Assembly: GCA_022601595.1 (NCBI GenBank)
Contig: JAJACI010000002.1
Location: 12,523-76,522 of the forward strand
DNA length: 64,000 nucleotides
Direction of reading: 5' to 3'
Source: Chlamydiia bacterium
GTDB lineage: Bacteria; Chlamydiota; Chlamydiia; Chlamydiales; 2-12-FULL-49-11
Shown here: positions 1 to 57,495 of the stretch, piece by piece
How positions within the stretch are numbered: position 1 is the stretch's first letter
Layout of the letters: every line of letters starts with the position of its first letter
Translations under genes and position numbers: made by a program
The notes under the pieces: generated by a model
What the model saw: only the letters and a program-made list of their open reading frames with translations
Database searches by the model: none
Told to the model about the DNA's origin: nothing

Positions 1-2
1 GT

Positions 3-1817
3 GTGGGATCTGCTCTTACCATTGGTGATTTAACGGCTGCACCTGGCACCGAAATAAAAATCGGTGCAAAAAGTTTAACGTTTGGAACAGCAAACAATGC
101 CACCATAGCTGGAATTATCAGCGGAGATAGTGGCGGCACTATTACTAAAACAGGCACCGGATCGGTTACTTTATCAGCAACCAACACTTTTGCAGGAACC
201 GTAAATGCCTCCCAAGGAACTCTTGTGGTAAACGGTGTGCTCCCTGGGGATGTCTCGGCTGCAAATAGTGCTACGATAAAAGGGACAGGATCTATCGGAG
301 GAAAGCTCTCTATTGCAAGCGGAGCCACACTCACTCCAGGAAATTCTATTGGAACCATTACGCTAGGGAGCCTCTCTTTAAGCGCAGGCTCTACCACAGA
401 AATAGAATTTGATCCTCTAAGCAGCTCGGTAATAAATGTTACCGGCGCGGCCGCCCTTGCCGGAGAGCTGACTCCTGTTTTTGATGCGGGAGATTATCCC
501 CTTACAGGGAGCTATGAAATCTTAACAGCAAGCTCCATAACAGGAACATTTGATAGCATTAGCAGCGGCCTTCCAGATTTTGTTTTCGCTCTTGATTATA
601 CAGGAACCACAGTTACTTTAACATACACCAACCCTATTCCTACCGATGGTCTCACAGGAAATTTACTAAAATTTGCAAATTATCTAAATACGTATTCTAC
701 CATCAATGATGATTTTATTGCACTTGCAGCCCTTTCAGGAGACGCTTTATACAATGCCCTTAACAGCGCCTCCCCTGCAAGAAATGCTTTTCCCACTTAT
801 GTATCTCAAATGACAGCATTTACTTTAAGCCATAATTTAAGCAACTATTTAGATGGGAAAAGGTTTTTAAACTCTTATGATATTTCTGGAGAGATTGCAG
901 ATATTTGTATGTCTAACCAAAATCACTGGCAATCTTCTAATACCTACTGGAACCAATCAGAAAATAATAATGCTCAGCCACAATATTGCTTTTGGATAGA
1001 TGGATTTGTCGATTTTGCAAATGGTGGCGCGGAAAACCAAAATGTACCTTTTGATTTTATCACCGGCGCCGTGCTTGTTGGAGTTGATTTTGAAAGCGCC
1101 TATAAAGAAAATATTCTTGGTATCGCTGCCGGTTACGCAAACTCCTGGGTGGAGGATAATAGAGGAATGGGGTCATCTGACATATCATCTCTTGCAGCCA
1201 CCATATATACCGATTATATGTACGATATATTGTATATGCAAGGAGCTTTTTGGGCAGTGCTTGAGTTAACTAATAATCAAAGAATCATTTCCTATCCAGG
1301 AGTGCATGCCAAGGCTACATCGAATTTTACTGGGTGGCAAATCAACCCTCACGTAGAACTTGGAGTTAGTGTAGGCAATAAAATGCTTGATGTTCAACCT
1401 TATATTGCCTTTGACTATGTGCAAAATCAGCAAGATGGCTTTACCGAAACAGGTGCTGGCACTTTTAATATGACTCAAAAAGCCCAGAAATCTTCTATGC
1501 TACAAACAGAGGTGGGGATGAGATTCTACCAAGGGGTGAATAGATGCTATTACCGCCTGGGAATCAAAGAAAAGATAAGTTTCATCAACCGAGTCCCTTT
1601 TGACACAGGAAAAGTTACTACCGCTATTTTTAATGTGGATCATTTTGTTACGCTAACCTCTTTTACTCAAACTCAAACCCTTGCTGCCGTAAGTCTCTCG
1701 CTATTTATTCAAGCTGGAAAAGAAAAAAACACCATCATCTCCATTGGTTATGACGGCCTTTTTGGAAACCAGTATGTATCTAATGGAGCAAACCTAACTA
1801 TCTCCACCTCATTTTAA
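3..1817 (+). CDS. Autotransporter / Pmp-like outer membrane protein, C-terminal part (5' end lies upstream of window)
   Basis: ORF open to window edge. Passenger repeats of the G-GTL-L-G-NTF-G type, then a C-terminal domain collinear with the two downstream paralogs and ending in an aromatic residue (ISTSF). Confidence 0.85.
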   Translation: MGSALTIGDLTAAPGTEIKIGAKSLTFGTANNATIAGIISGDSGGTITKTGTGSVTLSATNTFAGTVNASQGTLVVNGVLPGDVSAANSATIKGTGSIGGKLSIASGATLTPGNSIGTITLGSLSLSAGSTTEIEFDPLSSSVINVTGAAALAGELTPVFDAGDYPLTGSYEILTASSITGTFDSISSGLPDFVFALDYTGTTVTLTYTNPIPTDGLTGNLLKFANYLNTYSTINDDFIALAALSGDALYNALNSASPARNAFPTYVSQMTAFTLSHNLSNYLDGKRFLNSYDISGEIADICMSNQNHWQSSNTYWNQSENNNAQPQYCFWIDGFVDFANGGAENQNVPFDFITGAVLVGVDFESAYKENILGIAAGYANSWVEDNRGMGSSDISSLAATIYTDYMYDILYMQGAFWAVLELTNNQRIISYPGVHAKATSNFTGWQINPHVELGVSVGNKMLDVQPYIAFDYVQNQQDGFTETGAGTFNMTQKAQKSSMLQTEVGMRFYQGVNRCYYRLGIKEKISFINRVPFDTGKVTTAIFNVDHFVTLTSFTQTQTLAAVSLSLFIQAGKEKNTIISIGYDGLFGNQYVSNGANLTISTSF

Positions 1818-1877
1818 TATTTGAAAAGAATGGCTCGTAACTGTTATAAAACAATTCTCTAATTGGATATATAGAAT

Positions 1878-4800
1878 ATGAAAAAAGCCCTTTTCGTTTT
1901 ATTTTTTGTAGGTTTTACCTCTATACAAGCTGTACCTTTTACGGTGACAAATGACAGCGATTTTGCCCCTGGATCATTTCGTATTCAAGCAGGAAACGCT
2001 GGTGCTGATGCATTCAATATCCTTGACTTTGATGGGGATTATACCATTGCCATTGAAGATCCAGTAATCCCATTAAACAGCGCTTTTACCATTGATTTTT
2101 CTACCCATGACATTACCTTTTCTGGAGGAACAGCAAACCCAGGTCTAAGCATAACAAATGGTGTTACACCCACTTTAACCTCTTCCGATAACACCTCTAG
2201 CCTAACCATTAATGTAAACATTGGAGAAACTCTTGCCCCTGGCGGCTTTATTATTACCGATAAGGCCAATGTTGAATTTAGCGGGGTAAATACTTTTACT
2301 GGCGGGATAACCATACAAGTGGATGAATTGATATCACAAGGAAGTGTTATCTTGAGCAACAATCAAGGTCTTGGAACTGGAAATGTGTTATTTGCTCAAG
2401 GCACCTTACATCTAAACGATACTATCACCATGGCAAATGCTATTGACCTATCGGTAGGTATAGGCGCTCGACAAATAAATGTTGCAGGTGGAGGGTCCGC
2501 TACTGTGTCAGGAAATATGATTGGAGCAAGCTCGCAAACGCTGTATAAACTTGGCAATGGAACCCTCTTTTTAACTGGGGTAAACACCTCCTCTAGCCCA
2601 ATAACTATTTCCGAAGGGACATTGGCTTATAAAGATGGAGGACTCTCTTCCTCAACAGGTGATGTACTGATTAACAATACAACCTCGCTTGATATTTCAG
2701 CTATTTCAGCCTCTGGTACTACTGTTGCAGATCTTTCAGCCGTCTCTGGAACCACTATCGTTTTAGGAGGTAAAAGCCTCACTTTTGGAACATCATCAAG
2801 TACTGAAATTGCAGCAATTGTATCAGGTAGTGGCGGATCTTTAGTCAAGATAGGAGATGGCACCGTTACCCTTTCCGGTGTGAATACGTATACCGGAGGA
2901 ACATCCCTGGATAACGGATCCCTTTCCCTAAGCAATAATGCAGCTTTAGGAACAGGGGACCTTACCATGCAAAGTGACACTACATTGCTTTTCGATGGCG
3001 TTACCAGTTTAGCTAATAATATAATATTCAATGAAGCAGGAACAAGCTCTTTGAATATTGGAGCAGGTGAAACAGCTACATTAGACGGAATTATTAGTGG
3101 AGTAGGTACTTTTGAGAAACAAAATGAAGGAACCCTACAATTAGAAAGTGCAAATACCTATAGCGGCGGAACGGCGCTTACAGATGGTACTATTATTCTC
3201 AATAATAATACCGCAATGGGATCAGGAGCATTGACCTTTACTAATGGAACCTTACAAGTTGATGGAGGGATCACTGCAGGAAATACCATTACCCTTGGCT
3301 CTGGAACCTCTCGAACAATCAGCGTTCTTACAGGAGATATAGCAACACTCACAGGAGTGATTAGCGGGCCGGGCTCCCCCCCTTTGATTAAATCAGGCGA
3401 AGGGACGCTTAACCTCTCTGCTGTAAATACGTATACAGGAGCGACCACCATTTCTCAAGGTACACTTGCCTATACTGGCGCAGGATTACCCTCGGCTACT
3501 GGTGATATGCTTATCCAAGGGACATCTACCTTTAATATTTCAGCTATTACTTCTGATCAGGCAACTGTTGGAAATCTAACTTTATCTTCAGGTGCGAGTT
3601 TAGTCTTGGGCAGTAAAAGTCTTACCTTTGGAGGAGATAGCGACACCAATCTTGAAGGGGTAATTAGTGGGAGTGGCGGCTCCTTAATCAAGACAGGAGA
3701 TTCTGTATATACCCTTTCAGGAACAAACACGTATACCGGAGGAACTACTCTGAATGGTGGTACGCTTGTTTTAGATAATAATAGTGCATTAGGAGGTGGA
3801 GGAGCCCTAGATATGAGCGATGGCACAACCTTAACTCTAATGAATGAGATCGATGCCTCTAATAATATTTCAATCACTTCTCAAGGAACAAGATCTTTCA
3901 ACGTTGACTTAGTGTCAACTGCAGTAATAGACACAGGAACCCTTTCAGGGGTTATTAGCGGGGCGGGCTCTTTAGAAAAAACAGGAGAAGGCACCCTTGT
4001 TCTCTCAGGGGAAAACACCTATAGTGGCGGAACCACCATTTCACAAGGTATCTTAGAGGTATCGGGATCCCTTTTTAACACAGGATCTGTGACGGTAAAT
4101 GGCTCCTCCTCTTTTGACATGAGTGAAGTAACATCTGCCCTTACTATTGGAAGTTTAGAAGCGGCAAGTGGGTCTACCATAGAATTAGGAACAAAGAGCT
4201 TAACTTTTGGTGGAAGTAACAATACCACCATCGCAGGAGTTATTGAAGGAGACAGCGGCTCCTCTCTTACTAAAATAGGAACAGGGTCTGTTACTCTAAG
4301 CGGCGTAAATACTTTTGATGAAACAATGACCGTTTCTGGGGGAACGCTTATTGTAAATGGCACTCTTCCCGGCTCTGTTACCATGGGGACATCTACCACG
4401 TTAAAAGGAACAGGAACGATTGGAGAAGAGGTGAGCGTTGCAAGTGGGGCCTCTATTCGGCCGGGAAATTCTATTGGTACTATCACTGTTGGAACATTAA
4501 CTTTGGATACAGGATCCACTACAAGTATAGAATTTGATGATACAAGCACCTCTTTGATAAAAGTTACCGGCGCAGCAGACATTGCCGGAACATTACATTT
4601 GATTTTTGACCAAGGAAATTATCCTCTAACTGGGAGCTATCAAATATTGACCGGCGCTCCTGTGATAGGAACGTTTAGCGCTATTACAGGCGATGTTACT
4701 GGATTTGATTTCTCATTAAGCTACTCTACAACAGATGTTCTTTTACTCTTTACCAAGGTGATCCCCACTGCAGGGCTTACAGGAAATATCCTCAAGTTTG

Positions 4801-5939
4801 CAAACTATTTAAATGCATCTGCCCCTGCATCTAATGAATATAGCGCTTTAACCGATCTTCGTGGAAGCGCGGTAGCTGTTGGAGTAAACAGCGCCTCCCC
4901 TGCTAGAAATGCCTTTAGTACCTATGTAACGCAGATGGGAGTATTCTCCCTTAGTCATATAGTGGATAATTACCTCTCTGGAAAAAGGTTTTTTAATGCT
5001 CATGATGCCCCTGGTGAGATAACAGACATTTCCCTCTCCGGCAAAGATTTGCTCGCAGCAAATAAAAACTGGGGATATCCAGAAATAGAGATGAATAAAC
5101 CTGAGCATACTCTTTGGGCGAGCGGCTTTGTAGACTTTGCACGGCAAGATAGCGAGAGTCAAAATCTTCCTTTTGATTTTATATCCAGTGGCTTTATATT
5201 GGGATTAGACTCTCAAAGTGTTTTTAAAGATGATGTGGTAGGCGCCGCTTTTGGCTATGTCAACTCCCAGGTAGATGATAATGGCAATATGGGATCCTCA
5301 AGTATTTCCTCGTTTGCAGTATCCATATATGGTGATTATTTTTGGGAGTATTTTTATTTCCAGGGGGCGCTGTGGGGAGTCTCCCACCAAATCAACAGCA
5401 ATAGAAAGATCTCCTATCCGGGTGTACAAACCAAAGCATCGAGTAGATTTAGTGGCTGGCAGGTAGCTCCTCATTTAGAATTTGGTTTTACCTTTGGATC
5501 ATCCCTATTTGAAGTGCAACCATACGCCTCCTTTGACTATGTATACAACTGGGAAGATAGCTACGAAGAAACCGGCGCTCTCAATTTAAATATGAGGGTA
5601 AAAGCTCAAGAGTCTTCGATGTTACAAACGCAAATTGGGATGAAGTTTTTTCAATCAACTTTTATATCCTCTGGCCGCTTTGGTATGAAAGAAGGTATTA
5701 GTTATATTAACCGTACTCCGTTCGAGACAGGCACCATTACAACCTCTATTTTTGGAGCTACCGATTTTGTCTCTTTAAGATCTTTTACCGAGTCACAAAA
5801 TCTTGGCGCCTTAGATATAGAAATGTTTTTCCAAGTAGGAAAAGAAAAAAATACCACCATTTCCCTTGCATATGAAGGTCAATATGGAGATCAGTATATC
5901 TCCAATGAATTAATCCTTACCCTCTCTCATATTTTTTAA
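1878..5939 (+). CDS. Autotransporter / Pmp-like outer membrane protein (1353 aa)
   Basis: Signal-peptide-like N-terminus MKKALFVLFFVGFTSIQA. Many copies of the autotransporter-associated beta-strand repeat (GTL.L.G.NTYTGGT.I..GTL). Conserved PGNSIGTITVG...IEFD segment and a beta-barrel-like C-terminus ending LSHIF. Confidence 0.9.
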   Translation: MKKALFVLFFVGFTSIQAVPFTVTNDSDFAPGSFRIQAGNAGADAFNILDFDGDYTIAIEDPVIPLNSAFTIDFSTHDITFSGGTANPGLSITNGVTPTLTSSDNTSSLTINVNIGETLAPGGFIITDKANVEFSGVNTFTGGITIQVDELISQGSVILSNNQGLGTGNVLFAQGTLHLNDTITMANAIDLSVGIGARQINVAGGGSATVSGNMIGASSQTLYKLGNGTLFLTGVNTSSSPITISEGTLAYKDGGLSSSTGDVLINNTTSLDISAISASGTTVADLSAVSGTTIVLGGKSLTFGTSSSTEIAAIVSGSGGSLVKIGDGTVTLSGVNTYTGGTSLDNGSLSLSNNAALGTGDLTMQSDTTLLFDGVTSLANNIIFNEAGTSSLNIGAGETATLDGIISGVGTFEKQNEGTLQLESANTYSGGTALTDGTIILNNNTAMGSGALTFTNGTLQVDGGITAGNTITLGSGTSRTISVLTGDIATLTGVISGPGSPPLIKSGEGTLNLSAVNTYTGATTISQGTLAYTGAGLPSATGDMLIQGTSTFNISAITSDQATVGNLTLSSGASLVLGSKSLTFGGDSDTNLEGVISGSGGSLIKTGDSVYTLSGTNTYTGGTTLNGGTLVLDNNSALGGGGALDMSDGTTLTLMNEIDASNNISITSQGTRSFNVDLVSTAVIDTGTLSGVISGAGSLEKTGEGTLVLSGENTYSGGTTISQGILEVSGSLFNTGSVTVNGSSSFDMSEVTSALTIGSLEAASGSTIELGTKSLTFGGSNNTTIAGVIEGDSGSSLTKIGTGSVTLSGVNTFDETMTVSGGTLIVNGTLPGSVTMGTSTTLKGTGTIGEEVSVASGASIRPGNSIGTITVGTLTLDTGSTTSIEFDDTSTSLIKVTGAADIAGTLHLIFDQGNYPLTGSYQILTGAPVIGTFSAITGDVTGFDFSLSYSTTDVLLLFTKVIPTAGLTGNILKFANYLNASAPASNEYSALTDLRGSAVAVGVNSASPARNAFSTYVTQMGVFSLSHIVDNYLSGKRFFNAHDAPGEITDISLSGKDLLAANKNWGYPEIEMNKPEHTLWASGFVDFARQDSESQNLPFDFISSGFILGLDSQSVFKDDVVGAAFGYVNSQVDDNGNMGSSSISSFAVSIYGDYFWEYFYFQGALWGVSHQINSNRKISYPGVQTKASSRFSGWQVAPHLEFGFTFGSSLFEVQPYASFDYVYNWEDSYEETGALNLNMRVKAQESSMLQTQIGMKFFQSTFISSGRFGMKEGISYINRTPFETGTITTSIFGATDFVSLRSFTESQNLGALDIEMFFQVGKEKNTTISLAYEGQYGDQYISNELILTLSHIF

Positions 5940-5956
5940 CCTTTGGATAGTCTCCT

Positions 5957-8900
5957 ATGAAAAAATTTCTTGTAATACTATTTTTCACCATTTTTGGACT
6001 TGTCCAAATAGAGGGTTATGAAGTGACTAGCGGAGATGATGCTGGTGCTGGCACGCTTCGTGAAGGATTAAACACAGGAAGCAGCGGCGATACCTTTACT
6101 TTTAGCGGCGATTTTTCTATTCCTATTACTTCTGCGGCTTTACCTTTTGATTATATAAATACCATTGATGTGGGAACAAATACCATTAGACTTACAACAG
6201 ATACCCCTCCTTATGGCGTGGTCTTTGGCGGCGGAGGAACGGTCACTTCTACAATAGATGGTACAGGACTACTTACCGTAGATGTTGTAGTATCAGAAAC
6301 AGGCGGCACAACTGGGTCCTTTATCAAAACAGGATCGTCGATATTTTCTCTTGATACGGCAAATACCTTTACCGGCGGCGTAGCTCTACAGGAAGGAACC
6401 CTTCTACTTACAAACAGCACAGGACTTGGTACAGGCGATCTGACTATTAGTGAAGATGCTATCTTATTAGTAACAGGAGGAATCAATGTTGCAAATAGTA
6501 TCGATCTAACCGGATCGGGCGAACGAGAAATTACTGCCTTAGCTGCTACAGATATTGGGACCTTATCAGGGATTATTAGCGGAGATGCAAATGCCTTGCT
6601 GTTAAAAACAGGAGCTGGAGAGCTTACCCTTTCTGGCGCAAATACCTTTCCAGGTGGCGTAGCCCTACAAGAAGGAACCCTTATTGTAGGCAATAATATA
6701 GCACTAGGTTCTGGTACCCTTGATTTAACAAATGACGGCACCGCCGCAACCAACTTTGAAATAAGCGATGGGATAACTGTGACAAACCCTATTACCATAG
6801 GTGGCGCCGAAGTAAAAAATATAGAAGTTGGAACGGGAGATACAGCAAACTTATCAGGAGTGATTAGCGGCGCCTCAGGCACAGCCTTGTATAAAACAGG
6901 TGACGGAACCCTTACATTAAGTGCCGCAAATACCTATTCTACCGGAACCATAATTAGCGCCGGTACATTAGCTCTTACAGGATCGCTAGATAGTACAGCA
7001 GATGTAACCGTCAATGGTTCTGCCATTTTCGATATTAGCGCAGCAGCATCTGCGCCTACTATTGGGGCGTTAGAGGCAGAGTCTGGGACGTTGCTAAAAT
7101 TAGGAGCTAAAAGCTTAACCTTTGGAACAAACGACGCTACCAAAACCATTGCAGGAGTGGTTAGCGGATCTGGAGGATCTTTGATCAAACAAGGGACCGG
7201 ATCGGTAACTTTTTCTGCCACAAATACCTTTACCGGAGGAGTAACATTAAATGCTGGAACCATTGTCCTGGATAATAATGCCGCGCTGGGAACAGGCTCT
7301 CTTACCATGGCGCCGCTCACTACACTTACTACCAATCCAGGGATCACCGCTGCTAATAAAATTGCCTTAAGCACTGCTGGTTCTAGAGATTTTACTGTTG
7401 GGGCAGGAACAACTGGGACCCTCTCTGGCATTATTAGCGGATCAGGAGGGCTTGAAAAGAAAGATTCAGGAACACTTACCCTTTCTGGCGCAAATACCTA
7501 TAGCGGCGGAACCGTTATCACTGAAGGAACCTTAGCCCTCAAAGGATCCCTTCTAAAAACAGGTGATGTAACTATCAATAACTCCTCCTCGTTAGATATT
7601 AGCGAGGTCACAGCAGCCCTTACCATCGGATCCTTAAATGCTGCAAGTGGATCTACAGTGAAATTGGGAACAAAGTCTTTGACCTTTGGAACAGATAGCG
7701 ATGCGGTAATTGCAGCAATTGTTAGTGGAGATACAGGATCTTCTTTGAACAAAAAAGGAACAGGAACCGTTACCTTTTCAGCGGTAAATACCTTTGCAAA
7801 TACATTGACCGTATCGGCAGGAACAGCGGCTATAAACGGCACTCTACCAGGCGCTGTAACGGTGAAAAGCTCTGCAGCTGTAAAAGGAACGGGAACCATC
7901 GGCGGCAAACTTACCGTTGAAAGCGGAGCCGCATTTACCCCAGGCAACTCTATTGGCACCATCACAGTAGGAAGCCTCTCTTTAGACTCCGGCTCTACAA
8001 CAAATATAGAATTTGATCCAGCAACCAGCTCGCAAATAAAAGTTACCAATTCTGCCACCCTTGCAGGAACCTTAAACTTAACAAATAATCCAGGCGATTA
8101 TCCCCTTACCGGTAGTTATTTATTCTTAACAGCAGATTCTATCAGCGGCACTTTTGATTCCATTACCGGAGGACATCAAGAATTTATTTTTTCTGTAGAT
8201 TATACCTCAACCAGCGCTACCTTACTTTATAGTAGCCCTATTGCCACCGGAGGACTTACAGGAAATATATTGACCTTTGCAAATTACTTAAATGCTTACT
8301 CTCCTGTAACAGATGAATTTGTTGCCTTATCAGAACTTTCTGGGCAAACATTATACAATGGAATCAATAGCACCTCCCCGGCTAGAAATACCTTTAACAC
8401 TTATACCTCACAGATCGCTCTATTTTCACTAAGCCAAAAGGTAAGCAACTACCTAACTGATAAAAGATTTTTCAGCTCTCATGATACCTCATTGAATATC
8501 GCAGATATTTGCTCGTCTAATAATGACCATTTGATTGCAGTAAACTCCTATTGGGATGATGCTGAATATAAAAGGGCCGAGCCTACCTACGCCTTTTGGA
8601 TCAATGGTTTTGCCGATTTTGCAGGCCAGGGAGGCGCCAATCAAAACGTTCCTTTTGATTTTATTACCGGCGGCGTGCTGGCCGGCTTAGACTGGGAAAG
8701 CTCTTATAAAGAACATATCCTAGGCATCGCTATTGGCTATGCAAACTCCCAGATTACCGATCACGCAAGGATGGGATCTTCTGAAATCTCCATGCTGGCC
8801 ACTTCCCTCTATGCAGACTTTTCCTATCACTCCTTTTATGCCCAAGCAATGTTTTGGGGCGTTTTTAATCTTATTGATAATCGCCGAATCATTTCCTACC

Positions 8901-9421
8901 CTGGGGTGAATACAAAAGCGAAAGCTGAATACTGCGGATGGCAAATCAATCCCCACATAGAACTTGGCTATAGCCACAGATCACAAATATTTGAAGCACA
9001 ATCCTATATCGCCTTTGACTACGTACAAAATGAACAAGATAGCTATAGTGAAAAAGGCGCTGGAAATCTAAATATGAGGGTGAAAAAACAAAAATCCTCC
9101 ATGCTACAAACCCAGCTGGGAATAAGATTCTACCAAGGAATCGATCGGCCCCATTACCGCTTTGGTATCAAAGAAAACATTAGCTTTATCAACCGAATAC
9201 CTTTTGATACAGGCACCCTAACTACCGCCATTTTTGGCGCTGATAACTTTGTAACCCTTCACTCTTTTACACAAACACAAACTCTTGGCGCCATTAATAT
9301 AACCCTTTTCACCCAAGTAGGAAAAGAAAAAGACACCATCATTTCCCTTGGCTACCAAGGAGAATTTGGAAACCAATATATTTCAAACAGCGCAAGCCTC
9401 ACCATCTCTACAGAATTTTAA
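5957..9421 (+). CDS. Autotransporter / Pmp-like outer membrane protein (1154 aa)
   Basis: Signal-peptide-like N-terminus MKKFLVILFFTIFGLVQIEG. Same passenger repeats. C-terminal domain closely alignable to ORF 3..1817 and ending ISTEF. Confidence 0.9.
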   Translation: MKKFLVILFFTIFGLVQIEGYEVTSGDDAGAGTLREGLNTGSSGDTFTFSGDFSIPITSAALPFDYINTIDVGTNTIRLTTDTPPYGVVFGGGGTVTSTIDGTGLLTVDVVVSETGGTTGSFIKTGSSIFSLDTANTFTGGVALQEGTLLLTNSTGLGTGDLTISEDAILLVTGGINVANSIDLTGSGEREITALAATDIGTLSGIISGDANALLLKTGAGELTLSGANTFPGGVALQEGTLIVGNNIALGSGTLDLTNDGTAATNFEISDGITVTNPITIGGAEVKNIEVGTGDTANLSGVISGASGTALYKTGDGTLTLSAANTYSTGTIISAGTLALTGSLDSTADVTVNGSAIFDISAAASAPTIGALEAESGTLLKLGAKSLTFGTNDATKTIAGVVSGSGGSLIKQGTGSVTFSATNTFTGGVTLNAGTIVLDNNAALGTGSLTMAPLTTLTTNPGITAANKIALSTAGSRDFTVGAGTTGTLSGIISGSGGLEKKDSGTLTLSGANTYSGGTVITEGTLALKGSLLKTGDVTINNSSSLDISEVTAALTIGSLNAASGSTVKLGTKSLTFGTDSDAVIAAIVSGDTGSSLNKKGTGTVTFSAVNTFANTLTVSAGTAAINGTLPGAVTVKSSAAVKGTGTIGGKLTVESGAAFTPGNSIGTITVGSLSLDSGSTTNIEFDPATSSQIKVTNSATLAGTLNLTNNPGDYPLTGSYLFLTADSISGTFDSITGGHQEFIFSVDYTSTSATLLYSSPIATGGLTGNILTFANYLNAYSPVTDEFVALSELSGQTLYNGINSTSPARNTFNTYTSQIALFSLSQKVSNYLTDKRFFSSHDTSLNIADICSSNNDHLIAVNSYWDDAEYKRAEPTYAFWINGFADFAGQGGANQNVPFDFITGGVLAGLDWESSYKEHILGIAIGYANSQITDHARMGSSEISMLATSLYADFSYHSFYAQAMFWGVFNLIDNRRIISYPGVNTKAKAEYCGWQINPHIELGYSHRSQIFEAQSYIAFDYVQNEQDSYSEKGAGNLNMRVKKQKSSMLQTQLGIRFYQGIDRPHYRFGIKENISFINRIPFDTGTLTTAIFGADNFVTLHSFTQTQTLGAINITLFTQVGKEKDTIISLGYQGEFGNQYISNSASLTISTEF

Positions 9422-9724: not shown

Positions 9725-9884
9725 GGAGACTCTGATAAACGAGCAGTTTTATAATCTCCCAGATTTCTGATACATCCTATTTTTCGTGGCGCCCCATCCC
9801 TACAGGGATGCCGCTTACTCCAAAATCGGATTTATTTCAAAAAATCTGAAGAAATTCTAAAAAGTGCAGTTTATCAGACTCTCC
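9725..9884 (-). mobile_element. Family A 160-bp foldback MITE-like element, copy A1
   Basis: Termini ggagactctgataaac ... gtttatcagactctcc, internal near-palindrome catccctacagggatg, flanked by ttaa/ttaa. Near-identical to seven other 160-bp copies in the window. Confidence 0.85.
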
Positions 9885-9888
9885 TTAA

Positions 9889-9904
9889 GGAGACTCTGAT
9901 AAAG
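9889..9904 (+). repeat. Solo family A terminal repeat
   Basis: ggagactctgataaag lies directly after A1, separated by ttaa. Only the terminal 16 nt are present. Confidence 0.5.
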
Positions 9905-10460: not shown

Positions 10461-10733
10461 GATTTTAGAGAATTTTTTCAGCGCTTTTTTTCTATAGGAG
10501 ACTCTGATAAACTACACTTTTTAGAATTTCTTCAGATTTTTTGAAATAAATCCGATTTTGGAGTAAGCGGCATCCCTGTAGGGATGGGGCGTAGCGAAAA
10601 ATGGAATTTATAAGAAATCTGGAAAATTATAAAACTGTCCGTTTTTCAGAGTCTCCTATATAGGATCTGACGTGTACATACAGGTACTCTAGGATCCTAT
10701 ATAGAAAAAAAGCGCCCAAAAAAACTCTAAAAT
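10461..10733 (+). repeat. Family C long hairpin C1, left arm interrupted by element A2
   Basis: Left arm gattttagagaattttttcagcgctttttttctata[A2]tataggatc pairs with right arm gatcctatatagaaaaaaagcgcccaaaaaaactctaaaa. Apex at 10668-10692 is tgacgtgtacatacaggtactctag. Confidence 0.6.
10497..10656 (+). mobile_element. Family A 160-bp foldback MITE-like element, copy A2
   Basis: ggagactctgataaactacac...ccgtttttcagagtctcc, flanked by tata/tata. Sits inside the left arm of hairpin C1. Confidence 0.9.
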
Positions 10734-10884: not shown

Positions 10885-10994
10885 TTTTGATGAGTTATTT
10901 TTTAGAAGATCTTTTCTAATTCGGATCCGACGTGTGCGTGTAGGCACTCTAGGATCCGAATTAGTGAAAGATCTTCCAAAAATAACCATCAAAA
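10885..10994 (+). repeat. Family C long hairpin C3, abutting the tmRNA 3' end
   Basis: Arms ttttgatgagttattttttagaagatcttttctaattcggatcc / ggatccgaattagtgaaagatcttccaaaaataaccatcaaaa. Apex at 10929-10951 is gacgtgtgcgtgtaggcactcta. Ends 1 nt before ssrA. Confidence 0.7.
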
Positions 10995-11410
10995 TGGAGG
11001 TGGGGAGATTCGAACTCCCGTGCTAGATAACTCCACAACTATATCTACATACTTAGTCACCCGTTAATAACCTTATGAAATGACGACAGATGACAAGCAC
11101 ATGTAACATAAGGCTTTTTCTAAATCTTGAATAGTTGGGCCGAAAAAGAATTCCCATCTATTCATACCGTGATATATTACGATGAGAATAAGACCTCTCG
11201 GTCCGAATCTTAAACCATCGACGAAACTACCTTTCGGTAATTAAGCTGCAACTGAAGCGGCATTTTCAGCAGTAAACTGCTCAAAATTACCAACTATAAC
11301 ATTACTGTTTTTTGGTGCATTTATTTTTTTTCCGGTTTTTTTAGGAGGCCAACCAGAACCCTCCGTATGCAATAATTACTTATACCATCCAGGCGATACC
11401 ACTCACCCCC
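10995..11410 (-). ncRNA. ssrA: tmRNA (transfer-messenger RNA)
   Basis: 5' GGGGGUG pairs with 3' CACCUCC, giving a 7-bp acceptor stem with a G3:U wobble and discriminator A; CCA is not encoded. T-arm is GGGAG-UUCGAAU-CUCCC. Internal tag frame 11318->11241 reads GCA CCA AAA ... GUU GCA GCU UAA = APKNSNVIVGNFEQFTAENAASVAA. The segment before the resume codon (GGUUGGCCUCCUAAAAAAACCGG) resembles the E. coli ssrA PK1 region. Confidence 0.9.
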
Positions 11411-14079: not shown

Positions 14080-15438
14080 ATGCATATCTTAAATACTATA
14101 TCCGAACATTTAACGGTATCGATTCAGGCCGCTAAAGACGCCTGGGTTGAAATCCCTCCTTTTACGAATATAATAAATTCTTTTTTGTATGTCAGCACTT
14201 ATAGAAAACCTGTAGACCTTTCTGCAGTTACTATTGAAAAGCTCAATGCAATTACTGGCGAGGAAGTATGGAACAGCCAAGCTACAGCTAAAGTGTTAAA
14301 ACTTTTTGAAAACGAATCTACAAAAGAAGTCTTTTCAGGAAATCCAACTAGTAAATTGGATAACATAAATACCTCTTTAAAAAAGTTAGGATATAAGATT
14401 CTTGCTGAAAAAAATATTGATGGCACTCCAACTCCATATTACGGTGTAGTACAAACACCGGATAGTTCATTAATTCTAAAGTATGCCCCTAACCATCATT
14501 CTCCTCTCAGACAACCACCTGAAATATCTTTTCCCTCAGATAATTTCTTTGCATTCGCTTTTGGTGACCCCAATGAATCTCTGCTTAGGATTAAAATGGC
14601 ATCTCTAATTAAAGTTGCTGCAACCGAAAATAAACTAAATATAACTGTTCCAAAAAAAATAGCGATAAAAATCCCAAGAAACAGCCGATCTTCTCGAGCT
14701 CAATATGTAATAGCTGCAGAAGCTATTGACCTTCTTTCTATTGATGAAATGAAAATTGCTATCACTGAAGCACCCAAGAAAGAGCAGGAAGAACTTGCAC
14801 TTAGAGTGCATAGATTTATAGAGTTAACAGGGTTTGTAGATGTAAACATTGGAAATAATATCTTATTTAGAAGAGGAGATGAAAGACCTTTATCAACTAG
14901 AGAATTAGTTGTTATTGACACTGAACCAAGAGGCTCTTTAGAAACAAAAGACAAAAAATCTCTATTCCCCTCCTCTTGCTTAGAAAAATGTAGAGTGATT
15001 GGAGGTTTACAGGCATATGCTTTTAGCATACAGAATTTCGGGAAGGAAACCCACTTAACAAAGGCTCTCCTAACACTCGCTAGACGCCAAACCAGACAGA
15101 GAACTTGGATGAGCACTGTTGGAATTTCCAGTTGCATTTTTTTCCCTCTGATATTAACTGGAGCACTGAAAGCAAACAAATTTTCTGACAAACGGAAAAG
15201 AGTGCTCCTAACTGTCATTTCTTATTTATTTATATTGTATATTGCACCAATAGTCAAAGCTCTTCATATTGCTATAACTGCTTATAATATGACTCACGCA
15301 AAAAAAAGATTGATAACTTGCTTTGAAAATACAACACCTAATGATAGCAGAACCTTAATTCTACAAAAAAAATATATTAAAGCAAAAGCTGCTTATCACC
15401 ACGCCATCAATAATTCTTTTTTAAGGTTGGGCGCCTAA
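14080..15438 (+). CDS. Hypothetical protein with kinase-like catalytic-loop signature and C-terminal transmembrane hairpin
   Basis: SD-like gagggg lies 6 nt before ATG 14080 (ORF opens at GTG 14074). GFVDVNIGNNILF...VVIDTE fits D-x4-N plus an I-D-x-E/G kinase-fold pattern. Two hydrophobic helices lie near the C-terminus (VGISSCIFFPLILTGAL / VLLTVISYLFILYIAPIV). Confidence 0.6.
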   Translation: MHILNTISEHLTVSIQAAKDAWVEIPPFTNIINSFLYVSTYRKPVDLSAVTIEKLNAITGEEVWNSQATAKVLKLFENESTKEVFSGNPTSKLDNINTSLKKLGYKILAEKNIDGTPTPYYGVVQTPDSSLILKYAPNHHSPLRQPPEISFPSDNFFAFAFGDPNESLLRIKMASLIKVAATENKLNITVPKKIAIKIPRNSRSSRAQYVIAAEAIDLLSIDEMKIAITEAPKKEQEELALRVHRFIELTGFVDVNIGNNILFRRGDERPLSTRELVVIDTEPRGSLETKDKKSLFPSSCLEKCRVIGGLQAYAFSIQNFGKETHLTKALLTLARRQTRQRTWMSTVGISSCIFFPLILTGALKANKFSDKRKRVLLTVISYLFILYIAPIVKALHIAITAYNMTHAKKRLITCFENTTPNDSRTLILQKKYIKAKAAYHHAINNSFLRLGA

Positions 15439-15446
15439 AAAGATTC

Positions 15447-15474
15447 TAAAAACTGTCCGTTTATCAGAGTCTCC
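15447..15474 (+). repeat. Family A right-end fragment
   Basis: tctaaaaactgtccgtttatcagagtctcc matches the right terminus of family A and lies back-to-back with A3. Confidence 0.5.
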
Positions 15475-15478
15475 CTAA

Positions 15479-15638
15479 GGAGACTCTGATAAACGAGCAG
15501 TTTTATAATCTCCCAGATTTCTGATACATCCTATTTTTCGTGGCGCCCCATCCCTACAGGGATGCCGCTTACTCCAAAATCGGATTTATTTCAAAAAATC
15601 TGAAAAAATTCTAAAAGGTGTAGTTTATCAGAGTCTCC
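15479..15638 (-). mobile_element. Family A 160-bp foldback MITE-like element, copy A3
   Basis: Full-length copy flanked by ctaa/ttaa. Its right terminus supplies the last three codons and the TGA stop of ORF 15628..16251. Confidence 0.9.
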
Positions 15639-17085: not shown

Positions 17086-18489
17086 ATGTCACAGATACTA
17101 GCATTTTTATTATACCTCTCTATTTTAATACTAATAGGGGTCCTCTCTTTTAAAAAGGGGCAATCATCCGACGATTTTATGCTCGGATCGCGTAAGATGA
17201 ACTTTTACCTTACCGCCTTTGCAGCGCATGCAAGCGATATGAGCAGCTGGATCTTTTTAGCATATCCTGCAGCTATTTATCTTGGCGGGCTCCGCGGGAT
17301 TTCAATCGCAATTGGACTAACCAGTTTTATGTTTTTAAACTGGCAATTTATAGCGCCAAAAATACGCACGGAAACAGAAAAATATGGGAGCCTTACCCTC
17401 TCCTCTTTTTTCGAGAGTAGATTTTCCGATTCTTCAGGAATACTAAGAATCTTCTCCTCGCTCGCTTGCATTATTTTCTTTACCGTCTATATCTCAGGAG
17501 GGCTTGTCAGTCTTGGCGTTCTATTAAATACTATTTTCTCCATACCATATTTCTGGGGGGTTATTCTTGGGATATTTGTAATCATCCCATATCTCTTTAT
17601 TGGTGGATATGTAACTCTTGCATGGACAGATTGTTTCCAGGGGATCTTTCTTTTATGTGTAATCCTACTTGTTCCAATATCAGCTTTTTATATCATGGGC
17701 ATCTCGTTTGAGTCCCTTTCCTTTATTTCCACGCCAAGGTTTTTACCTATTGAGGAAAGAACATGGTACTACCCTATTTTAGAAATATTTGCTTGGGGTC
17801 TTCCTTATTTTGGTCTGCCTCATGTGCTTACTAAATTTATGGGTATATCCGATGTAAAAGAAATGAAAAAAGCAAAGTGGGTGGGAATCTCTTGGCAAGT
17901 AACAGCCCTTGCAGGAGCAACTATTATTGGTTTTATTGCAAAAACCATCTATACACAAGGGTCCATTAACCCTGAATATGTTTTTATACAAATGACCACC
18001 ACATTATTTCCAGCTTTTCTTGCAACCTTTATCCTTTGCGCCATTCTTGGAGCAACCATAACGTGTATGGATTCACAGATCCTTGTGGTAGCAACCTCGC
18101 TTGCAGAAGATATCTATAAAAAAGTGATCCGAAAAGATGCTACATCAGCTGAGCTATTATTAGTAACAAGGCTCTCTATCTTTGCTGTAGCAATACTCTC
18201 GTGCATTATCGCACTTGTTTCTGGAAACTCAATAATGTCCTTAGTATCCTACTCATGGTTTGGCCTTGGAGCGTCCTTCTCTCCCCTTGTTCTCTTTTCT
18301 CTTTTTGGAAAAAGAGTTTCAAGAAATGGCGCTGCAGCAGGGCTCTTTACGGGCTGCTTTATAGCTGCTATCTGGCCGCTCTTCCCATTTGCAAAAGCGT
18401 GCCCATCGATGATCCCAGCCTTCCTCTTAAGCTGCCTTGCCATCAAGCTCTTCTCCATCCAAAAACCTACTACCCCTATCCCCCATTAG
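17086..18489 (+). CDS. Sodium:solute symporter family transporter (PutP/PanF-like)
   Basis: 467-aa polytopic membrane protein with about 12-13 hydrophobic segments and SSF-like organisation. Substrate cannot be assigned. Confidence 0.65.
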   Translation: MSQILAFLLYLSILILIGVLSFKKGQSSDDFMLGSRKMNFYLTAFAAHASDMSSWIFLAYPAAIYLGGLRGISIAIGLTSFMFLNWQFIAPKIRTETEKYGSLTLSSFFESRFSDSSGILRIFSSLACIIFFTVYISGGLVSLGVLLNTIFSIPYFWGVILGIFVIIPYLFIGGYVTLAWTDCFQGIFLLCVILLVPISAFYIMGISFESLSFISTPRFLPIEERTWYYPILEIFAWGLPYFGLPHVLTKFMGISDVKEMKKAKWVGISWQVTALAGATIIGFIAKTIYTQGSINPEYVFIQMTTTLFPAFLATFILCAILGATITCMDSQILVVATSLAEDIYKKVIRKDATSAELLLVTRLSIFAVAILSCIIALVSGNSIMSLVSYSWFGLGASFSPLVLFSLFGKRVSRNGAAAGLFTGCFIAAIWPLFPFAKACPSMIPAFLLSCLAIKLFSIQKPTTPIPH

Positions 18490-18506
18490 TATTTGCGTTT
18501 TTTTAA

Positions 18507-18666
18507 GGAGACTCTGATAAACTGCACTTTTTAGAATTTCTTCAGATTTTTTGAAAGGTATTCTATTTTGGAGTAAGCGGCATCCCTGTAGGGATGGGGC
18601 GTAACGAAAAATAGGATTTATAAGAAATCTGGGAGATTATAAAACTGCTCGTTTTTCAGAGTCTCC
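18507..18666 (+). mobile_element. Family A 160-bp element, copy A4 (tandem with A5)
   Basis: Full-length copy with left flank ttaa, separated from A5 by only taa. Confidence 0.9.
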
Positions 18667-18669
18667 TAA

Positions 18670-18829
18670 GGAGACTCTGATAAACTGCACTTTTTAGAAT
18701 TTCTTCAGATTTTTTGAAATAAATCCGATTTTGGAGTAAGCGGCATCCCTGTAGGGATGGGGCGTAACGAAAAATAGGATTTATAAGAAATCTAAGAGAT
18801 TATAAAACTGTCCGTTTTTCAGAGTCTCC
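18670..18829 (+). mobile_element. Family A 160-bp element, copy A5
   Basis: Full-length copy in direct tandem with A4; right flank taaa. Confidence 0.9.
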
Positions 18830-18832
18830 TAA

Positions 18833-18953
18833 AGGGAAGATAAGGTGTTTTTTAATCAGAAGATTTTTTATTTCCCTGGTCGACAGTGTATAGTTAATAC
18901 TCAGAGACCAGGGAAGTGAAAAATATACGATTAAAAAACACCTTAGGTTCCCT
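18833..18953 (+). repeat. Family C long hairpin C4, immediately after the phoH2 stop codon
   Basis: Arms agggaagataaggtgttttttaatcagaagattttttatttccctggtc / gaccagggaagtgaaaaatatacgattaaaaaacaccttaggttccct. Apex at 18882-18905 is gacagtgtatagttaatactcaga. Confidence 0.7.
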
Positions 18954-20288
18954 TTATAAAACTTTGGCGGCTAGCGCGGCAAGCTTAGAACGTTCTGTGT
19001 GCTCGAAGTAGATGGAACCAAACAAAGACTCTTTTTTCATTCTCCCTACCGTATACACCAGGCCGTTAGAATCTCTATCTAAATAGGGATTATCAATCTG
19101 TGTTGGATCTCCAAGGATTACAATCTTTGTATTCTCTCCTACTCTTGAGATAAGGGTTTTTAGTTCATGGGGAGTAAGGTTTTGCGCTTCGTCAATAATA
19201 ATATAGGCATTAGAAAAAGATCTTCCGCGCATATAGGTAATTGCCTCCACTTGAAATTTATTACTTTCAAGGATCCATTTTTTTGTTTCGGCGCCATCTT
19301 CGCCACCAGATTCACAGATGTAATCAAGGTTATCAAAGAAAGGTGCAAGCCATGACTGAAGTTTTTCTTCTTTATTGCCAGGTAAAAAGCCAATATCTTT
19401 ACCAAGTGGCATGATAGATCGTGCTATGATAATTCTATTGTATACATTATCATCAAAAACTTTTTGCAAACCTGCGGCAAGTGCTAACAGTGTTTTACCA
19501 GTACCTGCATTCCCGATAAAAGAAACCAGTTTCACATCATCACGAAGTAAAAGGTCAAGGGCGCATTTTTGTTCTACATTACGAGGTTTTACTCCCCAAA
19601 CATTTTGCCTTCCTTTCAAAAGAGGCTCAAGTTTATTATCACGAGCATTGACTTTTGCAATAGCAGAGGAATTTGCTTCCCCTTTTAATACTAAGTAAGA
19701 ATTTGGATAGTAATTGCCTGCAGGTATTGCTATCTCTCCCTCTTTATAAAACTCATCAATCACATCTTTTGTGACATCCACCGTAAATATACCTTTATAT
19801 AAACCCTCATACGTTTCTTGATTGCTCTTAAAGGTTGCTGTATCTACACCAATTGTTTCAGCTATAATTTTTGTCACAGGATCTTTAGAAACAAGCATCA
19901 CATCATGTCCTAATTCTTTTAACTGATGAGCTGATGATAATAATCGATGGCGAGTTCTGTCAGGAGATAAACCAGTTAACACAGAATCCTTATCCTTTTT
20001 ACTCGGCTCTTTTTCTATAACAATTCTAAATGATCCCCCTTTGGCCAAAGGTATCCCCTTTTGAATATCTCCCTGTCTTGCCACTTCATCAATAAACTTC
20101 ATCGCTTTACGAGCATTTCTACCCATCTCACCGTGCATTGCCTTCTTCCTATCTAGCTCCTCCAGAACAACTCCTGGTAAAACTATGTCATGCATTACAT
20201 ATTGGTGAAAAGCGGAAGGATCATGTAATAATACGCTTGCATCAAGCATACATGATTTTCTATCCTTTAAAGTGGATTTTTTATCCAT
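18954..20288 (-). CDS. phoH2: PIN-domain/PhoH-like ATPase (PhoH2 / YlaK type)
   Basis: N-terminal PIN-like MLDASVLLHDPSAF...LPGVVLEELD. C-terminal PhoH ATPase with Walker A GNAGTGKT and IIIDEAQN. Confidence 0.85.
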   Translation of the reverse strand: MDKKSTLKDRKSCMLDASVLLHDPSAFHQYVMHDIVLPGVVLEELDRKKAMHGEMGRNARKAMKFIDEVARQGDIQKGIPLAKGGSFRIVIEKEPSKKDKDSVLTGLSPDRTRHRLLSSAHQLKELGHDVMLVSKDPVTKIIAETIGVDTATFKSNQETYEGLYKGIFTVDVTKDVIDEFYKEGEIAIPAGNYYPNSYLVLKGEANSSAIAKVNARDNKLEPLLKGRQNVWGVKPRNVEQKCALDLLLRDDVKLVSFIGNAGTGKTLLALAAGLQKVFDDNVYNRIIIARSIMPLGKDIGFLPGNKEEKLQSWLAPFFDNLDYICESGGEDGAETKKWILESNKFQVEAITYMRGRSFSNAYIIIDEAQNLTPHELKTLISRVGENTKIVILGDPTQIDNPYLDRDSNGLVYTVGRMKKESLFGSIYFEHTERSKLAALAAKVL

Positions 20289-28616: not shown

Positions 28617-28776
28617 GGAGACTCTGAAAAACGGACAATTTTATAATCTTCCAGATTTCTTATAAATCTTATTTTTCGTAGCGCCCCATCCCAAGAGGGA
28701 TGCCGCTTACTCCAAAATAGGATTTATTTCAAAAAACCTGAAAAGATTCTAAAAAGTGTAGTTTATCAGAGTCTCC
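28617..28776 (-). mobile_element. Family A 160-bp element, copy A6
   Basis: Full-length copy flanked by taaa/taaa, between the 5' end of the 27153 gene and the pssA stop. Confidence 0.9.
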
Positions 28777-44155: not shown

Positions 44156-44315
44156 GGAGACTCTGATAAACTACACTTTTTAGAATTTCTTCAGATTTTT
44201 TGAAATAAATCCGATTTTGGAGTAAGCGGCATCCCTGTAGGGATGGGGCGCCACGAAAAATAGGATTTATAAGAAACCTGGAAAATTATAAAACTGTCTG
44301 TTTATCAGAGTCTCC
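44156..44315 (+). mobile_element. Family A 160-bp element, copy A7
   Basis: Full-length copy. Its right end abuts the TAA stop (44316-44318) of the Sel1-like ORF. Confidence 0.9.
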
Positions 44316-45355: not shown

Positions 45356-45515
45356 GGAGACTCTGATAAACTACACTTTTTAGAATTTCTTTAGATTTTT
45401 TGAAATAAATCCGATTTTGGAGTAAGCGGCATCCCCGTAGGGATGGGGCGAAACGAAAAATAGGATTTATAAGAAATCTGGAAAATTATAAAACTGCTTG
45501 TTTTTCAGAGTCTCC
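45356..45515 (+). mobile_element. Family A 160-bp element, copy A8
   Basis: Full-length copy in direct orientation relative to A7, on the other side of the Sel1-like gene. Confidence 0.9.
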
Positions 45516-56465: not shown

Positions 56466-56502
56466 GGAGAGTCTGATAAACGAGCAGTTTATCAGACTCT
56501 CC
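56466..56502. mobile_element. Miniature family A derivative (termini only, 37 bp)
   Basis: ggagagtctgataaacgagcagtttatcagactctcc, flanked by tata/tata. Confidence 0.7.
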
Positions 56503-56510
56503 TATAATAT

Positions 56511-56663
56511 AGTCATTACCGTTTCATATGGCATATCTTCTGCTAATTTTTGTAGCTTTTTGATAAATGCATCTCACAAATATTTAAAATATTAGCTTGC
56601 TAAACTCTCCAAAATTCCCTCAAATATTCATTGAACAGTACGACATATGAAACGGTAACGACT
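56511..56663 (+). mobile_element. Family B 153-bp MITE-like element, copy B2
   Basis: agtcattaccgtttcatatg ... catatgaaacggtaacgact inverted termini. Same length and nearly the same interior as B3. Confidence 0.85.
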
Positions 56664-56773
56664 ATAGTATAAATAAAATTTTAACAAGCCCCCCCCTATC
56701 TAGCGCAATAGATTTTTCTTTTCATAAAAGAGCTTTTAGGTTAAGATTTTATTAAAAAAGAAAAGAAGGATCT

Positions 56774-57373: not shown

Positions 57374-57450
57374 TACCTGCTCTGATTATAAACCACAGCC
57401 TAACCGTATAAAAAGCCTACCAAATCCTCCTCTTGCATTTTTTTACTAAA

Positions 57451-57495
57451 AAGAAATCTGGAAAATTATAAAACTGCTCGTTTTTCAGAGTCTCC
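57451..57495 (+). repeat. Family A right-end fragment
   Basis: aagaaatctggaaaattataaaactgctcgtttttcagagtctcc equals the right 45 nt of family A. Confidence 0.75.

Follow-up and report, generated by a model that had tools for sequence, protein, structure and literature searches.

Correia/NEMIS of Neisseria and RUP of Streptococcus pneumoniae are MITEs of 100-160 bp with terminal inverted repeats (TIRs), which occur in hundreds of intergenic copies and yield hairpin transcripts. Many bacterial MITEs, Correia and RUP among them, are of the TA-duplicating IS630/Tc1 type. REP/BIME sequences are 20-40-bp palindromes associated with a RAYT (Y1) transposase and without target duplication, and TTAA is the signature target of piggyBac, whose ends begin CCC...GGG. 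Mobile DNA is usually said to be scarce in chlamydiae. The QMITE1 and QMITE2 elements of Coxiella burnetii occupy ~1% of the genome (Wachter et al. 2018, PMC5896051), and the insertion sequence IS5 is known to make 4-bp duplications at a YTAR target (PMC5009759). No description of MITEs in the phylum Chlamydiota was found in the literature searched, and the sponge metagenome paper of Dharamshi et al. 2022 makes no mention of transposases, repeats or MITEs.

The repeat studied here, family A, meets the description of a MITE in all structural respects; its ends and its duplication are those of the IS5 family, and it belongs neither to IS630/Tc1 nor to REP. Correia/NEMIS and RUP duplicate TA, are linked to other IS families and are not full-length foldbacks, unlike family A. 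The QMITEs and family A (2.25% of the DNA) are both high-copy MITEs in reduced obligate intracellular bacteria; in both, copies and gene 3' ends overlap, small versions are found beside full-length ones, and a clear active partner is lacking. The direct repeats of the QMITEs vary and measure 7-9 bp (PMC5896051), whereas those of family A are 4 bp (TTAA), and the sequences and ends of the two are unrelated. QMITE2 is a hotspot for IS1111 (PMC5896051), whereas family A copies target each other's ends. What sets family A apart from Correia, RUP and QMITE is the TTAA duplication, the full-length foldback, the density in a very small genome and the orphan state.

Family A is an ordinary kind of element, though this family was previously undescribed, and the understanding of how such elements work is left unchanged by it. 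New here are the exact match to IS5 ends, the empty sites, the rule governing arrays, the co-variation of the arms and the decay series. The 1.28-Mb genome of this sponge-associated chlamydia carries one family A copy or fragment per ~6 kb, and related 160-bp families are present in several other chlamydial families. In practical terms, family A causes breaks in assemblies (33 of the 124 contig ends fall within a copy), supplies stop codons, reshapes intergenic regions and can serve as a strain marker. Its orphan state, decay series and head-to-tail rule together form a natural data set on the spread and death of a MITE in a reduced intracellular genome.

The analysis started from a 64-kb stretch of DNA, referred to as the window (G000:C12:12523-76522), of a metagenome-bin assembly (G000) of 1.28 Mb in 62 contigs, with 38% G+C and 88.6% completeness. 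The organism is considered a sponge-associated chlamydia because identical proteins and DNA occur in assemblies that appear to come from the Dharamshi et al. 2022 sponge metagenomes (e.g. DHAR22-1_SAMN20209036, GCA_022599435.1 and GCA_022601415.1). A preliminary description had listed eight copies of family A in the window, each of exactly 160 bp, and re-checking on the sequence confirmed all their coordinates (Table 1). The window copies have the ends GGAGACTCTGAWAAAC / GTTTWTCAGAGTCTCC and the apex CATCCCTGTAGGGATG, and these ends form 16-bp TIRs that are found in every full copy. Both orientations occur, with three of the eight copies on the minus strand (9725, 15479 and 28617) and five on the plus strand. 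The truncated ends placed at 9889, 15447 and 57451 and the 37-bp miniature are likewise all present; the miniature is read as an internal-deletion derivative of family A. The T/A direct repeats said to flank the copies (TTAA/TTAA, TATA/TATA, TAAA/TAAA) were recovered at three of the eight, the flanks of the other five being imperfect. With stops in all six frames and a longest open stretch of 43 codons, the element has no coding capacity.

Table 1. Positions in the window of family A copies and fragments and of the features of the SSF-phoH2 gap.
Feature	Position	Strand	Remarks
Family A full copy and solo TIR	9725..9884	-	flanks TTAA/TTAA; solo TIR of ~15 nt at ~9889-9904 after the copy
Family A full copy	10497..10656	+	flanks TATA/TATA
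Family A fragment, model positions 1-40	15434..15474	-	head-to-tail with the 15479 copy via CTAA
Family A full copy	15479..15638	-	98% identical to the 9725 copy
Sodium:solute symporter (SSF) gene, left gap border	17086..18489	+	Pfam PF00474, E = 3.7e-62; stop TAG 18487-18489
TTAA, left target-site copy of A4	18503..18506		matches the genome-wide flank consensus TTAA
A4, full 160-bp copy, subfamily A1	18507..18666	+	nhmmer model positions 1-160, 180.8 bits (G000:C12:31029-31188)
TAA junction A4/A5	18667..18669		3 bp
A5, full 160-bp copy, head-to-tail with A4	18670..18829	+	nhmmer model positions 1-160, 183.2 bits
Hairpin C4, 124-nt near-perfect palindrome separate from family A	18830..18953		ends at the phoH2 stop codon
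phoH2 (PIN + PhoH ATPase), right gap border	18954..20288	-	Pfam PF02562 (8.6e-50), PF13638 (3.8e-18)
Family A full copy	28617..28776	-	flanks TAAA/TAAA, a non-palindromic direct duplication
Family A full copy	44156..44315	+	imperfect flanks TTAT/TTAA
Family A full copy	45356..45515	+	imperfect flanks TTAT/TATA
37-bp miniature: TIR + 5 nt + TIR	56466..56502		flanks TATA/TATA
Family A 3' fragment, model positions 115-160	57450..57495	+	nhmmer match

A genome-wide count of copies with a table of their flanks had been proposed, and for this an nhmmer profile built from the eight window copies was run on the assembly. It returned 223 non-overlapping matches on 50 or more contigs, 132 of them full length, together making up 2.25% of the DNA, and the flanks gave a consistent 4-bp duplication. 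With E-values down to 1e-55 and this number of genomic matches, chance is excluded as the source of the repeats. The 112 full copies that score 100 bits or more constitute subfamily A1, and nearly all of the remaining 20 belong to a diverged subfamily, A2. Mean pairwise identity among A1 copies is 88%, and the closest of the pairs at unlinked loci reach 97.5-99.4%.

Gene context was assessed with a crude ORF map (1133 ORFs, 88% coding), according to which no full copy lies within an ORF. Between tandem genes, 37 copies are co-directional with the genes and 40 are opposite, so that orientation is random; the possibility that it follows transcription was rejected on these counts, which give no sign of a strand-specific RNA role. 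Nineteen copies begin directly after a stop codon, the TAA of the TTAA being that stop, and in 6-8 further cases a reading frame stops at a TGA inside the terminal repeat. The position of copies at stop codons is attributed to TTAA targeting combined with selection against gene disruption.

Both flanks were available for 112 full copies, and 75 of these have an identical 4-mer on the two sides: TTAA in 48, TAAA in 8, TATA in 7, TTTA and CTAA in 5 each, and ATAA and GTAA in 1 each. The flanks had earlier been read as a duplication of TA or TWWA, as in IS630/Tc1-like transposition. Where both flanks are TTAA, a 4-bp duplication looks the same as a duplication of TA with the inverted repeat one base longer, and a TA-duplicating MITE of the IS630/Tc1-mariner type would agree with the affiliation of many bacterial MITEs. 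At other copies, however, the outermost base is duplicated too (CTAA/CTAA in five copies, ATAA/ATAA and GTAA/GTAA), and in seven of the eight cases with a base other than T directly 3' of the element, that base is also found 4 nt before it. These flank statistics exclude a 2-bp duplication with one additional inverted-repeat base. Were the flanks part of a longer inverted repeat, TAAA on one side would face TTTA on the other, but this inverted combination is nearly absent (TTTA/TAAA once, TAAA/TTTA never). Moreover, the DDE_3 domain (PF13358) is absent from the assembly, while control genomes gave matches, and the ends of family A are identical to those of an IS5-family IS. An IS630/Tc1-mariner origin is accordingly regarded as exceedingly improbable.

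The duplication is 4 bp, with TTAA the commonest sequence, followed by TWWA and YTAA. Three paralogous pairs of filled and empty sites, found in a screen with tandem copies masked, agree with this length. In the first pair, the filled site C11:10878-11036 reads ...CTCTT TTAA, an A2 element, TTAA GATAATTG..., and the empty site C11:10055-10157 reads ...CTCTT TTAA CATAATTG.... In the second, the element at C1:145949-146108 interrupts a repeat of which the copies on C17 and C31 hold a single TTAA. In the third, an element occupies C1:124295-124454, and the empty state is seen in eight uninterrupted copies of a 60-bp repeat, which have TCAA at the site. The same 4-bp duplication accompanies four nested insertions (C16:4415, C34:47543, C62:24551 and C56:29889), the targets of which are TAAA or TTAA at positions 12-15 of the resident terminal repeat. 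The 4-bp flanks, the empty sites, the nested sites and the IS5-like ends thus contradict the TA part of the earlier reading, while its TWWA part was close to right.

The absence of a transposase, noted earlier for the window, extends to the whole 1.28-Mb assembly. No match to DDE_3, piggyBac, DDE_Tnp_1 (PF01609), Y1_Tnp or NF033581 was obtained in this 88.6%-complete assembly, nor did tblastn with a chlamydial IS5 protein return one. Eight congeners likewise yielded no IS5 or other DDE transposase, and across the taxonomic family the IS5 protein search yielded just weak fragments, in another genus. A search for an IS with matching inverted repeats, suggested in the preliminary description, gave no partner in the assembly. 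Family A is therefore an orphan in this genome, in the sense that no transposase was found in an 88.6%-complete bin; such bins often lose IS copies.

Matches to the ends were found in other chlamydiae. With one mismatch allowed, the 16-mer end occurs 387 times in the assembly, twice in one congener (G006) and multiple times in genomes of other chlamydial families. A slightly looser pattern occurs 173 times in G158, 90 times in G233, 40 times in G039 and 28 times in G077, and in these four genomes the ends bracket foldbacks of 156-165 bp with 4-bp flanks of the TTAA/CTAA/TTAG type; G158 also has a 35-bp miniature. Foldback MITEs of ~160 bp with similar ends are present in at least five chlamydial families. 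Family A proper is lineage specific: among 40 relatives searched, one congener alone has it, in a single copy.

An IS5-family element is present in G077 (G077:C68; NF033581, 321 bits). Its left end, CTAA followed by GGAGAAACTGAACAACTC, agrees at 17 of 18 positions with the ends of the 160-bp MITEs of that same genome and at 13 of 16 with the family A end. A relative of this element, with an 88% identical transposase, lies on a 1175-bp contig and has TTAA on both sides, and in G158 a terminal repeat adjoins a remnant of a DDE_Tnp_1 C terminus. The MITE end joined to the TCCC that follows the end in IS5 relatives, GGAGACTCTGAWWAACTCCC, was then used to scan 185,579 species genomes (596 Gb). This 20-nt sequence returned 12 stretches, where ~4 are expected by chance, and nine of them are in Hahella sp. 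CCB-MM4, mostly at scaffold ends. Scaffold54 of this genome is a complete IS of 1150 bp; it has a CTAG flank and encodes a transposase of 315 aa (NF033581, 351 bits), and its left end is GGAGACTCTGAATAAC and its right end, as reverse complement, GGAGAGTCTGAATAAC. The left end is identical to the A2 end at all 16 positions and differs from A1 ends by 1-2 bases.

IS5-family elements such as those of Hahella and G077 share the 16-bp TIRs with family A, and the two have in common a 4-bp duplication at TTAA/CTAA-type targets and a preference for non-coding DNA (PMC5009759). They differ in that family A has no transposase gene, measures 160 bp against ~1.15 kb, has an unrelated foldback interior and is without a partner IS in the assembly. 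Its target is also broadened: TTAA is dominant and CTAA is present, but TAAA, TATA and TTTA widen the YTAR motif, and the whole spectrum (TTAA, TAAA, TATA, TTTA, CTAA) is TWWA-like and not strictly YTAR. Beyond the 16-18 bp ends, no interior similarity of family A to the three IS5 elements examined was found, which leaves descent from an IS by internal deletion unsupported; the true parent may be unsampled. The link to IS5 is drawn from the identity of the ends and the type of duplication and not from a partner in the genome.

A TTAA target would also suit a piggyBac-like or other TTAA-specific enzyme, with the likeness to IS5 ends a coincidence, and the lack of an IS5 transposase in the assembly fits such an enzyme as well. 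Against this, the ends of family A begin GGAG, unlike those of piggyBac, and PF13843 had no match in the assembly in a search run without a positive control. A 16/16 match to the end of a complete IS5 element, together with TTAA, CTAA and CTAG flanks on IS5 relatives, is unlikely to arise by chance, and mobilisation by another TTAA enzyme is considered highly improbable. Judged by its sequence, family A is in all likelihood a non-coding IS5-type MITE that inserts at TTAA with a 4-bp duplication. From the same features we infer that it was mobilised in trans by an IS5 transposase.

Two of the window copies, A4 and A5, lie between the convergent SSF and phoH2 genes, whose stops are at 18489 and 18954. 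The 464-nt gap consists, in order, of 13 nt, TTAA, A4, TAA, A5 and the 124-nt C4. It had been described as filled entirely by the two copies and hairpin C4, which is correct apart from the 13 nt at 18490-18502. The direct tandem arrangement of A4 and A5 was also borne out, with the 3 bp TAA between them; 10 of the 12 other tandem pairs of full copies have a 4-bp junction, one base longer. A4 and A5 share 94.4% identity, which corresponds to the 96th percentile of A1 pairs. C4 has a DNA fold of -38.3 kcal/mol (z = -11.8), and its first four bases, TAAA, double as the right flank of A5. Promoter-like and terminator-like sites were sought in the gap and none was found.

The SSF-phoH2 gene pair is syntenic in six of eight congeners. 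The two stops are separated by only 3 nt in G002 and G004, G006 has a spacer of ~60-100 nt with a small hairpin, and G001, G005 and G007 carry an unrelated insert of ~0.9 kb (sequences inspected for G001 and G007). A family A element is absent from this site in all eight congeners. They are too diverged or carry other inserts, and none offers a base-exact orthologous empty site for A4-A5.

Tandem arrangement is frequent genome-wide and follows a strict orientation. Of 35 abutting pairs, 34 have the same orientation, the lone exception containing a low-scoring match, and among pairs at 40 bits or more the ratio is 24 same to 0 opposite. Neighbours 0.1-10 kb apart, in comparison, are 41 same and 47 opposite. 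Abutting partners are 64% to 97.5% identical and often belong to different subfamilies. Simple local duplication as the general rule for tandem pairs was rejected on these grounds; instead, the arrays are best explained as mostly independent insertions in the flank or within the terminal repeat of a resident copy, with some local duplication or conversion. Simple insertion into a palindromic target would not lead one to expect the 24:0 head-to-tail rule. Inverted pairs, which would form long near-perfect palindromes, may have been lost, long inverted repeats being unstable and prone to loss by slipped misalignment (PMC11754738). Alternatively, insertion adjoining a resident end may be directional.

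The earlier claim of a full-length foldback was upheld, each copy folding into one hairpin (RNA -61.7 kcal/mol, z = -8.4). The other strand gives -52.1 kcal/mol, and as RNA the model strand folds more stably in 122 of 127 copies. The consensus sequences of A1 and A2 differ at 47 of 160 positions, and both are full-length hairpins. With DNA parameters the A1 and A2 consensus fold at -36.4 and -38.2 kcal/mol, compared with -24.1 and -25.8 kcal/mol for arm-swapped chimeras, a cost of ~12 kcal/mol for exchanging the arms. A double change in the apical stem, from CATCCC/GGGATG to CAGCCC/GGGCTG, was also seen, and RNAalifold on all copies recovered the apical stem only. Because the hairpins are kept in A1 and A2 and weakened in the chimeras, the arms co-evolve in the lineages that gave rise to the copies. 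Either a mobility requirement or templated correction inside the hairpin may lie behind this co-variation.

Such a strong foldback, more stable as RNA on the model strand and with arms that co-vary (chimeras at ~-25 kcal/mol), is also what might be expected of a structured repeat that serves the host, be it REP/BIME-like, a small-RNA or a terminator module, and that spread through its RNA or DNA function; many copies are indeed at gene 3' ends. The strand asymmetry in fold stability is, however, shared by descent and therefore not independent evidence, and transposition is evident from the target duplications and the empty sites. Copies show no preferred orientation with respect to transcription (37:40), and no terminator-like site lies in the SSF-phoH2 gap. 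An Rfam scan of 21 kb around copies matched nothing on the element and returned only tmRNA and chance microRNA matches. As for REP/BIME in particular, the genome has no RAYT/Y1 transposase (PF01797), and the element is 160 bp long with a 4-bp duplication. A host-serving repeat is thus considered very unlikely.

A role of the foldback in the mobility of the IS5-type MITE itself was also weighed. The co-variation of the arms, the occurrence of ~160-bp foldbacks in at least five families and the 24/24 head-to-tail pairs would be compatible with a reading in which the hairpin or cruciform is mobilised or captured, or in which insertion next to a resident end is directional. The directional route could involve a transposase-bound end or a dimer-type intermediate. 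If true, this would be a structure-dependent variant of IS5 transposition that is so far undescribed; we hold it to be unlikely.

Shortened derivatives of family A are found across the genome. There are 12-17 miniatures of 37 bp, each with its own 4-bp flanks, and their sequence is the product expected of a deletion between AAACTGC direct repeats near both ends. Shorter remnants are GGAGACTCTGAATCTCC (17 bp), GGAGACTCTCC and variants (11 bp, five sites) and GGAGACTCC (9 bp). Most short remnants are bracketed by identical TTAA or TTTA, and those on C1 and C35 have unequal flanks; deletion between triplets, TCT or CTC, at the base of the hairpin would explain these short remnants. In the "nearly precise excision" of Tn10, a long inverted repeat is removed by deletion between short direct repeats at its base, and a small palindromic remnant stays behind inside the intact target duplication. 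The family A remnants of 37, 17, 11 and 9 bp fit the same pattern, and by this analogy we infer decay through slippage from the end products. The miniatures may themselves transpose.

Taken together, these observations would be compatible with the following course of events. An IS5-type DDE transposase, supplied in trans, would recognise the 16-bp TIRs GGAGACTCTGAWWAAC and insert the 160-bp element into TTAA, less often TWWA/YTAA, by a 4-bp staggered cut, as a result of which the target would be duplicated on both sides. Surviving copies would be those between genes, many of them exactly on a stop codon with the gene unharmed because TTAA contains TAA. New copies would often land in the TTAA flanking a resident copy, or in TAAA/TTAA inside its TIR, which would account for head-to-tail pairs such as A4-A5. 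Slipped-strand deletion, promoted by the long foldback, would then remove the sequence between short direct repeats at the base of the hairpin and reduce copies to remnants of 37, 17, 11 and 9 bp, with the duplication still on either side. In its current state the family would be an orphan, with no assembled transposase and with the checked sites fixed in the sampled population.

Strain polymorphism was sought over window positions 5.6-26 kb. None was found, at least five same-strain assemblies being 99.9-100% identical and collinear, and all five family A copies within this interval are fixed in the sampled assemblies, suggesting that family A is presently inactive. The preliminary description had held that a family with neither an autonomous partner nor an insertion polymorphism would speak against a MITE. 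Neither was found; the flank test, however, was clearly positive, and there are congeners without the element.

One site differs from this uniform picture. The single copy in the congener G006 is on a 3-kb contig, the first 133 bp of which are 100% identical to G000 C56:14819-14951. At the C56 site, the assembly and two other assemblies, in which the remnant site is also identical, have only TTAA-GGAGACTCC-TTAA, and their right flanks differ from that of G006. The G006 copy is thus either part of a chimeric contig or a trace of a polymorphism between a full copy and a remnant.

The 133-bp left flank of a locus on a contig of the congener G006 (L002; G006:C12:1-292) is 100% identical to that of a site on contig C56 of the assembly under study, G000, where a 9-bp remnant of an A-type element lies between target duplications. 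After these shared 133 bp, L002 carries a full 159-bp copy followed by a right flank unlike that of G000. The L002 contig was binned to a different species of the same genus; either this contig is chimeric or the site is polymorphic between full copy and remnant.

Foldback MITEs also exist in other chlamydial families, each with sets of its own: in the genomes G158, G233, G039 and G077 (loci L037-L053) the elements measure 156-165 bp and their ends are GGAGMCWCTGAWWAAC. G158 contains approximately 170 terminal-repeat matches in 1.6 Mb and also a 35-bp miniature. Part of the left arm of one G158 subfamily (TCAGATTTTTTGA…GGAG..AGCG) is similar to the main A subfamily, A1. The ORF interrupted by a chlamydial IS5 copy in G077 encodes a product with the C-terminal end …KKPKKRGRPKKGEEPTREPKRLDRQ and may be another mobile-element gene.

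A insertions also occur in other small repeats of G000. One repeat of approximately 60 bp or more (…CCAAAATTCCCTCAAAAATTCATTGAACAGTACGCCATATGAAACGCTAACGACTATA…) has at least nine copies; a second family (…GGGGCGCTGCCCCA…CGCTTAAGGATCAAGATCCTTAAGAATCC…) includes a palindrome around TTAA, and one of its copies carries an A insertion.

The palindrome C4, whose DNA fold has -38.3 kcal/mol (z = -11.8), is a member not of family A but of another repeat family that sits tight against gene ends. The TAAA at the start of its stem is also the right flank of A5, the second of two head-to-tail A copies. A stack of A-family and hairpin repeats is located just downstream of the tmRNA gene, and the autotransporter genes contain many internal periodic repeats of 270-300 bp.

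Features and their coordinates (window, the 64,000-nt stretch; C, contig)
Feature	Location	Details
9-bp remnant	G000:C56:14948-14964	TTAA-GGAGACTCC-TTAA; immediately after 713-aa gene
Palindrome C4, 124 nt	window 18830-18953	near-perfect; between A5 and phoH2 stop codon
tmRNA gene	window 10992-11410	minus strand; Rfam RF00023, 139.9 bits
Three large paralogous autotransporter genes	window 1-9421	PATR repeats; Pmp-like
Chlamydial IS5 copy	L010 835-1050 (G077:C68)	inserted at CTAA, within an ORF
CCAAAATTCCCTCAAAAATTCATTGAACAGTACGCCATATGAAACGCTAACGACTATA-type repeat, one copy	G000:C1:124295-124454	interrupted by A element
CCAAAATTCCCTCAAAAATTCATTGAACAGTACGCCATATGAAACGCTAACGACTATA-type repeat	window 56606-56668 (C12:69128-69190)	example among eight other loci
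GGGGCGCTGCCCCA/CGCTTAAGGATCAAGATCCTTAAGAATCC family	G000:C1:145949-146108, C17:4601-4683, C31:2997-3078, C7:3021-3085, C50:3361-3424
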